Shown here in pieces: positions 3,165 to 38,381 of a stretch of 38,381 bases of DNA. A program made the translations under genes and the position numbers. The DNA comes from a virus. Lineage: Duplodnaviria > Heunggongvirae > Uroviricota > Caudoviricetes. The stretch lies in IMG/VR virus record IMGVR_UViG_2909303794_000008; one strand, given 5' to 3'. Under the pieces are notes generated by a model. That model made no database searches, was not told where the DNA came from, and saw nothing but the letters and a program-made list of their open reading frames with translations. Numbering within the stretch: the first letter of the stretch is position 1; each line of letters begins with the position of its first letter.

Positions 3165-4265
3165 TCATTCCATTTCGAAATCATCAATCCTCACTTCAAG
3201 CTCCAGACTGGTCGTAAAACCGTTATCCGGGCTGACGGTATGCGTCAGAGTCGTAATGGTCCATTCCGCATCATCTATCGGCTGTTTAAAGCCACTGACT
3301 TTCACTGGCATTTCCGTGTAGAGATCTGCCCGCCCTTCTGCCAGTTGTAGCGAGAATGACGCAACGCCGCGTTGCAGGCGTTCCCACTGCATTTTCGCCG
3401 CTCGTTCGGCGTTGCTCCGGTTGGCATAAGTGCGATTAAGTACCAGCACGTTTTCATCCGTACCCACCAGGTAATCGCCCTGCTTCGCTTCTGGCTCTTT
3501 CTTCTGCTTCTTAGTTCTGCGCTTACGCTTCACCGTGGTGCTTTCTTTCTTCGCAGGTTCGCGGGTATGCAACCAGCTGGCAATTACGCCCGTGTAGGCT
3601 CCGCGATCTGCCAGGGTAAAGCGGTGACTGTCGCCGTCCTTGCGTGTGATAGTGATCACTGGCAGTGGTTTACCAGTGGCGCTTTTGCCCTGCCCCTGCC
3701 GGATGAATAGCAGATTGCCATTTTTCACCGACGCGATGGCACCGTACTGTCGCGCCAGCCGCATCAGAAAACTGCCGTCACTCTCATTAGTCTGGTCTAT
3801 ATGTTCCACGGGCTTATCCGACAGGTCTTTACCCAGCGCCATCTTCAGCTTGTGACGCGCGGCTATTTCCTTTACCACTTCCCCGACGGTGGTCTTGTGC
3901 CAAGATTTTTCACGGCGGGTATTCAGGGTTTCCCGAAAATCAGCACTTCGCGCCCGGATAGTCAGGCGGTCCGGTGCGCCAGTGTGTTCAATCTCGTCCA
4001 CCGTGAATGCCCCTTTCGGGAAAAGCGGCTGCCCCTTCCAGCCCAGCGCCAGCGTAATGACCGCACCACGGCGCGGCAGCACGATTTTTCCATCGGCGTC
4101 GTCCAGCTCCAGATCAAGCTGGTCCGCTTCAAATCCCCGGTTATCCGTCAGCGTCAGCCCCATCAGGCGGTTGTCCAGCACAGTGGTGATATCCCTGCCT
4201 TCAATACTGATGCTGAATGCCGGAGTTTTGTTGCCTTTGTTAAGCAGTTCAGAGCTGAAATTCAC
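3165..4265 (-). CDS. D: tail protein D (late control gene D)
   Basis: 366 aa, last gene of the FETUD tail operon; P2 gpD-like sequence and position. Confidence 0.85.
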   Translation of the reverse strand: MNFSSELLNKGNKTPAFSISIEGRDITTVLDNRLMGLTLTDNRGFEADQLDLELDDADGKIVLPRRGAVITLALGWKGQPLFPKGAFTVDEIEHTGAPDRLTIRARSADFRETLNTRREKSWHKTTVGEVVKEIAARHKLKMALGKDLSDKPVEHIDQTNESDGSFLMRLARQYGAIASVKNGNLLFIRQGQGKSATGKPLPVITITRKDGDSHRFTLADRGAYTGVIASWLHTREPAKKESTTVKRKRRTKKQKKEPEAKQGDYLVGTDENVLVLNRTYANRSNAERAAKMQWERLQRGVASFSLQLAEGRADLYTEMPVKVSGFKQPIDDAEWTITTLTHTVSPDNGFTTSLELEVRIDDFEME

Positions 4266-29695: not shown

Positions 29696-29715
29696 CACTG
29701 TTTATATTTACAGTA
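29696..29715. promoter_or_regulatory. LexA operator (SOS box)
   Basis: CACTGTTTATATTTACAGTA = CTGT-N8-ACAG with an AT-rich spacer, 19/20 to the consensus TACTGTATATATATACAGTA. Confidence 0.75.
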
Positions 29716-34113: not shown

Positions 34114-34623
34114 TCACAGCAAACCGAATGAAGCACCGAGGCCAGTCACGGTATCAACTGCACTCGCCATCGCAGGATTAGCCTGTAAACGGGCCTGCAA
34201 TGAAACAGCGGCCAGCGCCATCAGTCGTGTTACAGAGTTAATGCTGCTGATAGCATCACGACGACCTGCACTGGTTTTTACATCGCCAGATACCGCACCT
34301 GCAGCAACACGCCCGATCTCTGCGGTTGCACTCATGACATAATGCGGCAGTTTCTCTTTTGCCACCTCATTAATCGGTACACATGGCAGGCAGTGAATCT
34401 GTGCCAGAAAGCCATCTACCAGCGTTGAATCTTCAGTCAGATCGGTAAGCAACCAGATTTCTGGTGCGGTTAATAAATGAGGTTGAGCTGGGTTCAGCTT
34501 GTTCCGCAGAATCTGTACATTCATGCCTGCACGTTCTGCCAGTCGCACCAGGTTGTGGCGCAGTGCGAATGCACGACAGGCTTCGTCAAAATGTGGATGT
34601 TTGGAAACTTGGTAATCAAACAT
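34114..34623 (-). CDS. B: replication protein B (helicase-loader-like)
   Basis: start set to [12 protein letters not shown], giving 169 aa; P2 gpB-like. Confidence 0.8.
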
Positions 34624-34655
34624 AGTCGACACCCCTGATGTATCCCAAAATGGAA

Positions 34656-34877
34656 CTAGTTGAATACAACATTGCAATCAGTAAGTGCATCAACGGTAAG
34701 AGCAGCAAGGTTGATCATTACCTTTTCTCTTTTCTTGTCTTTCCGAAGGCGATGGCGAGGGATGCGACCATCAGCCAGCATATCGTTGATGGTGTCGATA
34801 GAAAGACCAGTAAGTTCGCTATAACGCTCAATTGTGACGTGTGGCGTATTCAGAGTTATTGAAATGTTAGGGGTCAT
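34656..34877 (-). CDS. Apl/Cox-like excisionase/early regulator
   Basis: 73 aa from ATG 34877 with AGGAGA SD; first gene of the early operon, divergent from cI. Confidence 0.5.
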
Positions 34878-34972
34878 GATGCAACATCTCCTATTGGCTT
34901 GTGGTGAGCCTGTAGTAATCGTGACAAGTACCCAAACGGGGACAAAATTGATACTAGGATCGCAAAAGAGAT

Positions 34973-35569
34973 ATGTCAACATCAAAGTACCCAAATGAGA
35001 TCAAAATAAATCCCAATAAAGGTGGTAAGGCTGCGATTGAGCGATTAGTCGAAGCTTATGGCTTTACGACACGACAGGCTTTAGCTGATCACTTGGAAGT
35101 ATCAAAAAGCACTCTGGCGAACAGGTATTTGCGGGATACGTTTCCTGCAGACTGGATAATCCAATGTGCTCTTGAAACAGGAACCTCACTGAAATGGTTA
35201 ACCACCGGGCAAGGCCTTAAGCAAAGCTCGCTGACAGCAGCTACAGAAGAGCTTGCCAAGTTTCGCCTTACCGCAGGCAAAATGATTGAAGATGGTTCAT
35301 ATGTCTTCGATTCATCATTTCTTCCTGCAAATCTTTCATCACCAATTGTTATTCAGGATGGGCTCGTCACATACATTTGTGATCAAAAATTTTCTGAAGT
35401 ACTTGATGGGCACTGGTTAATCAACATCGACGGAACCTATTCCATTCGAAAAATCACAAAGCTTCCAAAAGGTATGATTAAAATTACAAGTACAGAGAAT
35501 AGCTTTGAATGTGCATTTTCTGATATTGAAGTAGTTGCTTGTATAAGAAGTACAATAGTTTCAAATTAA
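34973..35569 (+). CDS. cI: CI immunity repressor (phage 186 CI type)
   Basis: 198 aa; N-terminal EAYGF...LANRY...CALETG...WL.TG and C-terminal WLINIDGTYSIRKITKLP resemble 186 CI. Confidence 0.8.
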   Translation: MSTSKYPNEIKINPNKGGKAAIERLVEAYGFTTRQALADHLEVSKSTLANRYLRDTFPADWIIQCALETGTSLKWLTTGQGLKQSSLTAATEELAKFRLTAGKMIEDGSYVFDSSFLPANLSSPIVIQDGLVTYICDQKFSEVLDGHWLINIDGTYSIRKITKLPKGMIKITSTENSFECAFSDIEVVACIRSTIVSN

Positions 35570-35589
35570 TATAGTAAAAGGATTTAAAA

Positions 35590-37266
35590 ATGAATTCATT
35601 TTCCATCGTTATATTCTTATTAGCATTTCTCGCCCCCATTCTAGCTGTAATATTATTTAAGCAAAGCAAAAAACATAAAGCGGCTATAGATACCTTGACA
35701 GCTAACAACATAGCCCTTTCCAACCAACTGAAAGAAAATCAAGAAGAATTAGCACAGACTGTACGAGATCTATCAGAGCTTGAAGGACGAGCTGCACCAT
35801 TATGGCAATACGTAGAATTGCACAGCGCAGTGATGGAAGCAGAGAATAAGATAAAAAATGCAGACTCAATAGCCAGGCAAAAAATAGAAGAAGCCCAAAT
35901 AAAGGCTGCTAAGACAGTAAACGAAGCAAATTATCAAGCTCAGATAAAAATAAGCAACGCTAATAGCGAAGCTATAGCAATTACTAAAGACGCTCGCGAT
36001 GCACGCCTGAAAGCTAAAGAACGTCTTGATAATGCCAATAGTAAAGCAAATGAGCTGATCTCAAATGCTAATGACAATGCAGTGAAAATTATTTCCGATG
36101 CAGAAGAAAGAGCAAAAGAGATTGCTGGTTCAGCATATGAAGCTAAAGAGTTTGCAGAAAAATATGAAGCAGTTGCCAAATCAATGAAAAATAAAATTGA
36201 AGGTTATGGTGATGAATGGATCATCCCTAACCGTAGCGTTCTCGATGAATTGGCAGAAAATTATGAGTTTACAGATGCAGGCAAGGAATTACAAAAAGCC
36301 AGGGAGTTAACAAAATCATTAATAAAAACTAATAAAGCTGCTTCGTGTGATTATGTTGAACAAAACAGGCGTAATACTGCTATCAACTTTGTTTTAGATG
36401 CCTTCAATGGAAGAGTTGACAGTATTTTATCAAAAGTCAAACACAACAATTTTGGAAAACTTTCCCAAGAGATAAAAGATGCGTTTCAACTTGTAAATTA
36501 CAATGGTTCTGCCTTTAGGTCCGCAAAAATAAGTGACATCTATCTTCAAGCTCGACTCAACGAGCTAAAATGGGGTGTTGCAGTTAATGAAATTATGCTC
36601 GAAGAAAAAGAAGAGCAAAGAAGGATTAAAGAACAACTTCGTGAAGAGGAAAGAGCTCGTAGGGAGTATGAAAAAGCGATAAAAGAAGCTGAAAAAGAAG
36701 AGAAAGCTATTCAGCAAGCTATAAATAAAGCAACAAAAGAGCTTATGCTTGCAAATGAAGAACAACGCTTAGCTTTAGAGCAAAAAATAGCTGAACTACA
36801 GTTAAAATATGAAGAAGCTGAAGCTAAAAACCAACGAGCTATTTCTATGGCTCAACAAACTAGATCAGGCCACGTTTATATAATTAGTAATATTGGCTCA
36901 TTTGGCGAAGATGTATATAAAATTGGAATGACACGCCGCCTTGAACCACTTGATCGTGTTCGTGAACTCGGTGATGCTAGTGTTCCTTTTTCGTTCGATG
37001 TTCATGCGATGATTTATAGTGATGATGCACCATCATTAGAAAATCATCTGCATAAAGTCTTCAACGAAAAACAGGTCAATAAAATTAACTCACGAAAAGA
37101 GTTTTTCAACGTAAATATTAAAGAAATTAAGTCTGTTATTGAAGATATGAACATCAACGCACAATGGACAATGTTTGCGGAAGCGAAAGAATATAGAGAG
37201 TCACTGGCGATTGAGCAAGAGCGCAAAGCAGCAACTTCCGCCAACGATGAACTGCATGTTGCTTAG
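35590..37266 (+). CDS. membrane-anchored coiled-coil protein with C-terminal T5orf172 (GIY-YIG-like) domain; DUF4041-like architecture
   Basis: 558 aa; N-terminal TM helix, long coiled coils with repeated NANS/KANE motifs, C-terminal GHVYIISN...VYKIGMTRRL...ENHLH...EFF motif; AT-rich; AAAGGA SD 20 bp after the cI stop. Confidence 0.6.
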   Translation: MNSFSIVIFLLAFLAPILAVILFKQSKKHKAAIDTLTANNIALSNQLKENQEELAQTVRDLSELEGRAAPLWQYVELHSAVMEAENKIKNADSIARQKIEEAQIKAAKTVNEANYQAQIKISNANSEAIAITKDARDARLKAKERLDNANSKANELISNANDNAVKIISDAEERAKEIAGSAYEAKEFAEKYEAVAKSMKNKIEGYGDEWIIPNRSVLDELAENYEFTDAGKELQKARELTKSLIKTNKAASCDYVEQNRRNTAINFVLDAFNGRVDSILSKVKHNNFGKLSQEIKDAFQLVNYNGSAFRSAKISDIYLQARLNELKWGVAVNEIMLEEKEEQRRIKEQLREEERARREYEKAIKEAEKEEKAIQQAINKATKELMLANEEQRLALEQKIAELQLKYEEAEAKNQRAISMAQQTRSGHVYIISNIGSFGEDVYKIGMTRRLEPLDRVRELGDASVPFSFDVHAMIYSDDAPSLENHLHKVFNEKQVNKINSRKEFFNVNIKEIKSVIEDMNINAQWTMFAEAKEYRESLAIEQERKAATSANDELHVA

Positions 37267-37324
37267 CAATGTATGTTTCATAGTAATCACACATTGATTA
37301 CTGGTTGTATATACAGTTAAATTT

Positions 37325-37349
37325 AGCCCTCTGATATGAGGGCTTTTTT
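37325..37349 (+). terminator. rho-independent terminator abutting the int start codon
   Basis: stem agccctc(37325-37331)/gagggct(37338-37344), loop tgatat, T6 at 37344-37349, then ATG of int at 37350. Confidence 0.6.
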
Positions 37350-38381
37350 ATGGCAGTACGAAAACTCACCACAGGAAAATGGCTTTGCGAATGTTACCCC
37401 GCCGGACGTAGTGGACGTCGTGTACGTAAACAATTCGCCACCAAAGGCGAAGCTCTGGCTTTTGAGCGTCACACGATGGAAGAAACCGAAGCAAAGCCCT
37501 GGCTGGGTGAATCAGTGGATCGTCGAACACTGAAAGACGTGGTTGAACTATGGTTCAAACTACATGGTAAATCTCTGACAGCTGGGCAGCATGTCTATGA
37601 CAAATTGCTGTTGATGGTTGACGCTCTGGGCAATCCCCTTGCAACCGATCTCACCTCTAAAATGTTTGCCCACTATCGAGATAAACGTCTGACAGGAGAG
37701 ATCTACTTCAGCGAAAAATGGAAGAAAGGAGCAAGCCCGGTCACCATTAACCTGGAGCAAAGCTATCTAAGTAGTGTTTTTAGCGAACTATCCCGCCTGG
37801 GCGAATGGTCGTATCCGAACCCACTGGAGAACATGCGAAAATTCACCATCGCAGAAAAAGAGATGGCATGGCTTACCCATGAGCAGATTGTTGAATTGCT
37901 GGCTGATTGCAAACGTCAGGACCCAATTCTGGCACTGGTAGTTAAGATATGCTTAAGCACAGGCGCACGTTGGCGTGAAGCCGTAAATCTTACCCGCTCA
38001 CAGGTGACCAAATACCGAATTACCTTTGTAAGAACGAAGGGGAAGAAAAACAGAAGCATCCCTATCAGTAAAGAGCTTTACGAAGAGATCATGGCGCTTG
38101 ATGGGTTCAATTTCTTTACAGACTGCTATTTTCAATTTTTATCCGTGATGGAAAAAACGTCTATCGTGCTCCCTCGCGGTCAACTGACACACGTTCTGCG
38201 CCATACGTTTGCGGCGCACTTCATGATGTCGGGTGGAAATATCCTGGCCTTACAAAAAATTCTCGGGCATCACGATATAAAAATGACTATGCGTTACGCA
38301 CATCTGGCACCGGATCACCTGGAAACTGCATTACGGTTTAATCCGCTGGCAACACTACCAACATCAATAGCAAGTTTTTGA
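37350..38381 (+). CDS. int: tyrosine integrase (P2 Int-like)
   Basis: 343 aa; C-terminal catalytic region HVLRHTFA...LGHHDIKMTMRYAHL; stop at window end. Confidence 0.95.
   Translation: MAVRKLTTGKWLCECYPAGRSGRRVRKQFATKGEALAFERHTMEETEAKPWLGESVDRRTLKDVVELWFKLHGKSLTAGQHVYDKLLLMVDALGNPLATDLTSKMFAHYRDKRLTGEIYFSEKWKKGASPVTINLEQSYLSSVFSELSRLGEWSYPNPLENMRKFTIAEKEMAWLTHEQIVELLADCKRQDPILALVVKICLSTGARWREAVNLTRSQVTKYRITFVRTKGKKNRSIPISKELYEEIMALDGFNFFTDCYFQFLSVMEKTSIVLPRGQLTHVLRHTFAAHFMMSGGNILALQKILGHHDIKMTMRYAHLAPDHLETALRFNPLATLPTSIASF

Follow-up and report, generated by a model that had tools for sequence, protein, structure and literature searches.

The right end of the 38,381-nucleotide (nt) Caudoviricetes record IMGVR_UViG_2909303794_000008 from IMG/VR (the whole of this stretch is called the window below) is the lysogeny arm of a P2-like prophage (Peduoviridae) of the 186 type, in which the repressor gene cI, a cargo gene and the integrase gene int follow one another on the plus strand in that order. 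Between cargo and int lies a short leader that holds a hairpin, the int ribosome-binding site (RBS) and a set of promoter-like motifs (Table 1). A preliminary description had read the hairpin as the terminator of the cargo gene, had placed the Shine-Dalgarno (SD) sequence of int inside its stem, and had proposed that translation of int is coupled to transcriptional read-through or melting of the hairpin. Comparison with related loci upheld the sequestration of the SD, but not the assignment of the hairpin to the cargo gene, the coupling of int to read-through, or a function for a short inverted repeat further upstream. The leader is better described as a control region of int itself, with a predicted promoter under CII and LexA nested in an SD-occluding hairpin.

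Table 1. Genes and sequence features of the lysogeny arm and int leader (positions in the window; a point in the strand column, no strand assigned)
Feature	Position	Strand	Details
cII, predicted activator of the pE and int-leader sites	34114-34623	-	69% identity to 186 CII over all 169 amino acids (aa), E = 3e-95
CII site of the window's own pE, ATGTTTG-N13-CAAACAT	34597-34623	+	both half-sites identical to the annotated 186 pE site
cI repressor	34973-35569	+	Pfam Phage_CI_repr 8e-32, Phage_CI_C 4e-27
Cargo, PD-Lambda-1 defense protein, 558 aa	35590-37266	+	PADLOC 4e-120; Pfam DUF4041 + T5orf172/MUG113
Left half-site ATGTATG, 186-CII type	37269-37275	+	motif search
Inverted repeat AGTAATCA/TGATTACT	37282-37302	.	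arms 37282-89 and 37295-302; judged incidental
Right half-site CACACAT, 186-CII type	37288-37294	+	abuts the -35
Predicted -35 hexamer TTGATT	37294-37299	+	TTGACA or TTGACC in relatives
Predicted LexA (SOS) box TACTGGTTGTATATACAGTT	37299-37318	.	core CTG-N10-CAG at 37301-37316, fills the promoter spacer
Predicted -10 hexamer TTAAAT	37317-37322	+	17 nt past the -35; TTAAAT or AAAAAT by subfamily
Hairpin AGCCCTC-TGATAT-GAGGGCT	37325-37344	+	7-base-pair (bp) stem 37325-37331/37338-37344, five G-C pairs, 6-nt loop
Predicted start of Pint, ~37329	37327-37331	+	within the 5' arm of the hairpin; from two estimates
SD GAGGG of int	37338-37342	+	sole purine-rich candidate; 7 nt from ATG; wholly within the 3' arm
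T6 tract	37344-37349	+	terminator tail and SD-ATG spacer; int ATG follows at 37350-37352
int, P2/186-family tyrosine integrase, 343 aa	37350-38381	+	Pfam Int_N 3e-32, Phage_integrase 7e-22

Hairpin and ribosome-binding site of int

The hairpin, the T6 tract, the int ATG and the GAGGG in the 3' arm as the only SD candidate all lie where the preliminary description had put them, and the start codon is kept (MAVRKL...) in an alignment with the integrases of P2, 186, ev040 and Vibrio. In a terminator scan of positions 34600-38381 the hairpin with its T6 was the best terminator-like site, having the GC-rich stem-loop and following U-tract of an intrinsic terminator, and transcripts of the cargo gene, whose stop codon is 3 nt 5' of the left CII half-site, run into it. 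RNA from positions 37262-37380 (119 nt) folded at -33.4 kcal/mol (z = -4.0; none of 200 shuffles was as stable), and the hairpin segment alone (-38 to +3 relative to int) had a minimum free energy of -13.3 kcal/mol (z = -4.2). Opening the region from -15 to -5 of int cost 13.7 kcal/mol, the second highest value among 34 genes of the window (median 4.5). Opening free energies were used because the probability of the SD being unpaired saturates near zero, owing to weak alternative pairing with codons 10-16. The SD thus lies in a stable stem close to the ATG, and, as set out below, its pairing has been kept through changes on both sides of the stem.

Distribution and conservation of the int leader

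About 85 nt before the int ATG are conserved whatever lies 5' of them. The leader aligned across in phage 4LV2017, which carries a different cargo, and in ESSI2_ev040 and ev129, which carry none and have cI directly before the leader. Among 80 IMG/VR loci with Int 98-100% identical, some 30 leader variants were found; what precedes them falls into at least 12 unrelated sequences, and similarity resumes each time at ATGTATG, the left CII half-site. One genome per species was scanned as well, and 16 more loci with the same architecture emerged (Int 48-94% identical to that of the window), in genera including Silvania, Raoultella, Klebsiella, Kluyvera, Dryocola, Serratia, Yersinia, Rahnella, Ewingella, Acerihabitans and Brenneria. 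At ≥80% identity, the leader together with the 5' end of int was recovered from 1119 of 5426 complete Escherichia coli genomes; E. coli ECCHD184 (99.8% identical) is an example of a strain with this prophage. Persistence behind at least 12 different cargos, or straight behind cI, argues that the leader belongs to int rather than to the cargo gene; the hairpin was accordingly rejected as a part of the cargo, and the earlier view of it as the terminator of the cargo gene was not borne out. No such leader was found in 186, RE2010, Cartapus or ST15-OXA48phi14.1, in all of which cI abuts int, and the 115-nt gap between C and int of P2 has a similar SD, but no LexA box, CII site or SD-pairing stem. 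It is also worth noting that the junction between cI and int is a hotspot for cargo (loci L006-L085, from about 90 nt 5' of the int ATG outward), and that the cargo gene found in the window is labeled “chromosome segregation ATPase” in KP12 and vB_EcoM-813R9.

For closer comparison, 19 diverse leader loci from Enterobacterales were used (Int 48-98% identical to that of the window). The sequence of the stem turns over fully between lineages, and its 3' arm carries the SD every time: in addition to AGCCCTC/GAGGGCT we observed GCTCTCC/GGAGGGC, GTAGCCC/GGGCTAC, ACCCCCTT/AAGGGGGT, TCCTCCAT/ATGGAGGA, CACATTCTC/GAGAATGTG, ACTCTCCTAAA/TTTAGGAGAGT and ACAGCCCC/GGGGGCTGT, so that at least eight unrelated stem sequences all pair the SD. 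A compensatory change from C-G to T-A was found within a close clade as well (AGTCCTC/GAGGACT in L073). The first stem pair lies no more than about 2 nt past the -10, unless the outer pairs reach back over that hexamer. Hairpins with z ≤ -3.5 were found in 17 of the 19 loci, and the median minimum free energy was -14.0 kcal/mol in leader loci versus -4.2 kcal/mol in 57 int loci that lack the leader (Mann-Whitney P = 6e-9). Because 17 of 19 loci pair the SD by means of unrelated stems, sequestration of the SD, as the preliminary description had proposed it, is on comparative evidence clearly under selection.

The terminator tail shows a different pattern. At least five T residues after the stem were found only in the two clades nearest the window, and the stem is kept with no T-tract in ev040, L096, L099-L102, L114 and L162/163, the SD-pairing stems of this kind comprising the Serratia, Yersinia, Rahnella, Ewingella, Brenneria and Kluyvera versions. 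The U-tract expected of an intrinsic terminator is therefore not conserved together with the stem in relatives. Presence of a T-tract did not correlate in any simple way with presence of cargo, since loci with no T-tract carry cargo too. Maintenance of stem pairing with confinement of the T-tract to two clades points to SD occlusion as the conserved property and to the terminator tail as a local addition. In the commonest leader variant of E. coli (L003, positions 3551-3585, representing most E. coli copies) the T-tract pairs with the A-rich -10 (AAAAATGCTCTCC...GGAGGGCATTTTT), giving a 13-bp stem with the look of a bidirectional terminator, at which the scan no longer calls a terminator on the plus strand.

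Predicted promoter of int and its CII and LexA sites

Upstream of the hairpin, relatives share a -35 and a -10 hexamer. In L003 and L101 a promoter scan flagged the homologous hexamers (TTGACA-17-AAAAAT and TTTACA-16-TAAAAT, respectively; 10/12 each), and the 17-bp spacer is kept in both subfamilies, a difference of 1 nt after the -35 being offset by a shift of 1 nt in the -10. Two independent estimates place the predicted start of transcription in the window at about 37329, one by counting 7 nt from the end of the -10 and the other by adding 38 to the center of the right CII half-site (37291), following the geometry of the annotated 186 pE. The hairpin begins 2 nt past the -10, and a transcript from this position would lack the stem. 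Opening the RBS (-15 to -5) of the window cost 13.3 kcal/mol in read-through RNA versus 3.7 or 1.9 kcal/mol in RNA from the predicted start; across the 19 loci the costs were 7-18 and about 1-7 kcal/mol, respectively, with a drop of at least 4 kcal/mol in 18 of them. From the hexamers, their spacing and their conservation, we infer that int has a sigma-70 promoter of its own, Pint, which would fire from within the 5' arm.

A 186-CII-type activator site abuts the -35 of Pint. Allowing at most one mismatch, the motif ATGTWTG-N12-14-CAWACAT had just two matches in the 38-kb window, one at pE and one in the int leader (shuffles gave none), the copy in the int leader being ATGTATG-N12-CACACAT, with one mismatch to ATGTWTG/CAWACAT. 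In relatives the motif was likewise restricted to pE and to positions 77-86 nt 5' of the int ATG. A perfect ATGTTTG-N13-CAAACAT is found in the int leaders of ev040, L104, L114 and L162/163, and both copies (pE and int leader) are perfect in ev040 and two Yersinia loci. The distance from the end of the right half-site to the -10 is 22 nt at the int leader, 21 nt at the 186 pE and 22 nt at the pE of the window. From the half-sites, their conservation and this spacing, CII is predicted to act at the int leader as well as at pE.

The spacer of Pint is filled by a palindrome with the features of a LexA box. Against a matrix derived from 26 SOS boxes of E. coli, among which that of recA was verified in the sequence, it scored 25.1 bits, the top match in the whole window, compared with a leave-one-out median of 19.4 bits for the known boxes themselves. 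Scores upstream of int were bimodal across loci, at ≥15 bits in 24 of 82 (including Vibrionaceae) and <6 bits in 56 of 82. In 50 distinct leader sequences CTG and ACAG were invariant, with G, T or A as the fourth base; the box of the window is a CTGG variant, like those of ruvA, cho and dinG. Vibrio and Photobacterium have near-consensus LexA boxes 28-33 nt 5' of the int ATG, overlapping -10 and +1, and their leaders retain an AAACAT-TTGxxx element at a different spacing. The Vibrionaceae regions upstream of int have no hairpin, folding at only -3.7 to -10.6 kcal/mol. A match to the motif, overlap with the core promoter and conservation across hosts while the flanks diverge together point to a LexA site in the int spacer, to which LexA would bind.

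The inverted repeat to which the preliminary description had drawn attention is present and is in fact 8 bp rather than 7 bp long. Perfect 8-bp repeats of this type number 8 in the window against 4.85 in shuffles, and this one carries a disruptive T>C in KP12, L040 and L066 and is absent from all relatives with other cargo. Its left arm falls in the variable spacer of the CII site, and its right arm coincides with the -35 hexamer and the start of the LexA box. Being unconserved and at chance frequency, the repeat was rejected as a functional element.

Several further observations concern the surroundings of these sites. A second, canonical LexA box (TACTGTAAATATAAACAGTG, 23.8 bits) lies at 29696-29715 on the minus strand with promoter-like hexamers, and 3' of it follow small open reading frames (ORFs) down to about 29230 (minus strand) that are tum-like and occupy the same position as p95/tum of 186. 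With a LexA box before a tum-like ORF, the prophage looks SOS-inducible via an antirepressor of the 186 kind. Within int, codons 19-28 (37404-37431, plus strand) contain a tandem 9-mer (GGACGTAGT/GGACGTCGT) and overlapping palindromes (ACGTAGTGGACGTC/GACGTCGTGTACGT). The C terminus of Int varies, with 343 aa in the window (38360-38381), where the ORF stops at the last base, and 350 aa in KP12 (L001, 3584-4636), and many loci among L020-L085 match only to residue 338-339. The end of int probably shares sequence with the attachment (att) core, in which case the tail of Int would differ between the integrated and the excised prophage. In L101 (Rahnella) and L102 (Ewingella; both 3622-3767), genes for the small RNAs SraC/RyeA and SdsR/RyeB lie about 100 nt 3' of int, and these prophages may integrate at or beside the SraC/RyeA-SdsR/RyeB locus.

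Interpretation of the int control region

Taken together, we favor a reading in which the conserved control region of int (37269-37352) is a CII- and LexA-controlled promoter nested in an SD-occluding hairpin, and we assign it a probability of about 60%. Transcripts of cI and cargo, from pL or pE, would hold the whole hairpin; in the clade of the window they would end at the T-tract or, on read-through, have their RBS locked, and int would thereby be insulated from cI and cargo transcription. Transcripts from Pint would start near 37329 in the 5' arm and, having no stem, would present an open SD from which int could be translated. CII would act on Pint as activator and LexA as repressor. On such a scheme Int would be made in an infection once CII is available, and on SOS induction through cleavage of LexA together with derepression of pR, the source of both Apl and CII; it would be off in a stable lysogen. 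The broader proposition is about an even bet: that many 186-type P2-like phages, among them prophages in about one-fifth of complete E. coli genomes, use a previously undescribed CII-activated, LexA-repressed int promoter that starts inside an anti-SD:SD hairpin/terminator, with a single 60-nt sequence silencing int on transcripts of the lysogenic operon and defense cargo and opening the RBS on its own transcript, an insulation that may permit the cargo hotspot between cI and int.

Several points weigh against this reading. The promoter scan raised no flag on the leader of the window itself, whose -35 (TTGATT) and -10 (TTAAAT) are weaker than the hexamers of relatives, and the near-consensus -35 in those relatives is unusual in an activator-dependent promoter. 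The position of the start depends on hexamer spacing and on equating the start of 186 pE with the downstream limit of its annotated feature, and a start only 3-4 nt farther 5' would retain 5-7 pairs of the stem. Even when the 5' arm is missing, the SD and U-tract still pair weakly with codons 10-16. The CII site of the window departs from that of pE both in spacer (N12 versus N13) and in half-sites (ATGTATG/CACACAT versus ATGTTTG/CAAACAT), and among the sites behind the LexA matrix only that of recA was verified. Finally, LexA bound in uninduced cells should also block CII-driven int expression after infection, a difficulty for the supply of Int at integration.

In one alternative, Pint is real but starts a few nt farther 5', such that all int transcripts carry the hairpin and the latter acts as a damper, as a 5' stabilizer or as a stem opened by some factor, for instance in autoregulation by Int. 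A start at or before 37326 would retain 6-7 stem pairs, integrases are needed only at low levels, and P2 Int reportedly regulates its own expression post-transcriptionally. We nevertheless regard an upstream start as unlikely: the 5' arm occupies -6 to +1 after the -10 in every lineage, whatever its sequence, a position that makes sense if transcripts have to leave the arm out and has no explanation otherwise; with a T6 terminator just past the start, most Pint transcripts would end prematurely in the clade of the window; and Vibrionaceae have versions of the promoter with no hairpin at all.

The mechanism of the preliminary description, in which the hairpin terminates the cI-cargo operon and int, having no promoter of its own, is made only by read-through upon melting or disruption of the stem, draws on the good terminator-like site formed by hairpin and T6, on the location of the SD within the 3' arm, on the expression of 186 int itself from the lysogenic operon and on the unflagged leader of the window. 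It would, however, leave the conserved -35 and -10, the LexA box and the CII site with no role, and it sits poorly with a leader that moves with int rather than with cargo, with the lack of a T-tract in most lineages that keep the stem, and with the 186-type phages that do rely on the operon, in which cI abuts int and the leader is missing. Coupling of int expression to read-through or melting is thus probably not the case, given a conserved promoter that ends 2 nt 5' of the stem and a predicted start inside the 5' arm; Pint comes close to the independent int promoter that the earlier account had itself named as evidence to the contrary. We consider that account improbable as a whole.

It is very improbable that a phage protein (CI, Apl/Cox or Int) uses the CTG-N10-CAG palindrome as its operator, or that the palindrome is mere AT-rich spacer. 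The equivalent position at 186 pE is indeed occupied by a CI operator, FR, and in Vibrio phage yong1 (L090, 2385-2405) a TACTG-N7-CAGTA palindrome 5' of int is LexA-like but has the wrong spacing for LexA, which is weak evidence for a site of another protein. Against this, the palindrome is invariant across loci whose CI is only 34-86% identical to that of the window, and on this diversity a CI operator was rejected. It also spans Enterobacterales and Vibrionaceae, scores above both the median of known boxes and the tum box, and has no counterpart at the pR/pL or pE operators of the window. An RNA like RyhB encoded by the leader and ending at the terminator was prompted by an Rfam match to RF00057 (37283-37351, plus strand; 30 bits, E = 0.0006 in a 221-nt search), which was judged to be due to chance and rejected as extremely improbable, because it falls far short of the gathering threshold of 55, owes its score to the stem and U-tract of the terminator plus two short words (ACAUU and CAGU), has no counterpart at gathering score for any Rfam family in the leaders of ten relatives, and involves a stem whose sequence is not conserved among them.

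The favored arrangement of Pint, CII site, LexA box and hairpin has partial parallels in known systems. In lambda, CII is described as an activator of int. Like lambda pI, the int leader would provide a promoter dedicated to int under a CII-type activator that also drives synthesis of the repressor, and in lambda, too, the output of Int depends on the transcript from which it is made. Neither the proteins nor the sites are homologous, the CII here being of the 186 type with 7-bp inverted half-sites. Furthermore, lambda pI has no LexA box, and transcripts are told apart at the 3' end in lambda (sib/RNase III) but would be told apart at the 5' end in the int leader, through inclusion or exclusion of the arm that pairs with the SD. 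The 186 pE resembles the int leader in its half-sites (ATGTTTG-N13-CAAACAT), in the 21-22 nt from these to the -10 and in a repressor operator that overlaps the core promoter. It differs in driving cI, with int of 186 abutting cI and preceded by no leader, and in that its operator is the CI site FR rather than a LexA box; the int leader, for its part, has a near-consensus -35, and its copy in the window has N12 and one or two deviant bases. P2 has int 3' of the repressor gene and a similar GGAGGG-T-rich-ATG RBS, but it lacks CII as well as any LexA box, CII site or SD-pairing stem in the gap, and P2 Int is reported to regulate its own expression.

Among SOS promoters, that of recA has the same layout of -35, a 16-bp CTG-N10-CAG core as spacer and -10 (checked upstream of recA): recA reads TTGATA, CTGTATGAGCATACAG and TATAAT in succession, and the int leader reads TTGACA, CTGGTTATACATACAG, a single T and AAAAAT. 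Unlike recA and other SOS promoters, the int leader controls a phage recombinase and adds an activator site and, beyond the promoter, an SD-pairing hairpin. Intrinsic terminators and anti-SD:SD operators share with it a GC-rich stem and U-tract past an upstream gene and the pairing of an SD with a CCUC-type mimic of the anti-SD; what sets the int leader apart is a 5' arm at -6 to +1 of a predicted promoter, a position from which the same DNA could yield a terminator or locked RBS on one class of transcript and an open RBS on another. The integron integrase promoters of intI1 and intIA are described as having a LexA box that overlaps the promoter of a tyrosine recombinase, with SOS licensing recombination (PMC3108266; PMC3323433). 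These belong to another element and another recombinase clade, with no CII input and no SD hairpin. In the literature searched, coverage of which was incomplete, no description of an int promoter under LexA or CII was found for P2/186-like phages, and we know of no such arrangement for the integrases of this group. Each component is known; it is their combination in P2/186-like phages, with a predicted start site that splits an anti-SD:SD hairpin, of which this literature yielded no account.

If the predicted arrangement is correct, control of int in a very common group of enterobacterial prophages departs from the co-transcription of int and repressor known from the textbook cases of 186 and P2, and would be akin to the logic of lambda pI with an added SOS input. 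The capacity for excision and integration would then respond to DNA damage and CII directly, and not only by the indirect route through Tum and CI. The leader would also constitute a clean natural case of a promoter nested in a hairpin that terminates transcription or locks the RBS, with opposite outcomes for translation set by the position of the start, a design that could also be useful for synthetic insulation. Sites composed of a hairpin and T-tract 5' of such int genes should not be annotated as plain terminators of cargo genes. Finally, insulation of this kind would offer a mechanistic reason why exchange of defense cargos (PD-Lambda-1 among them) in the slot between cI and int can leave the control of int undisturbed.

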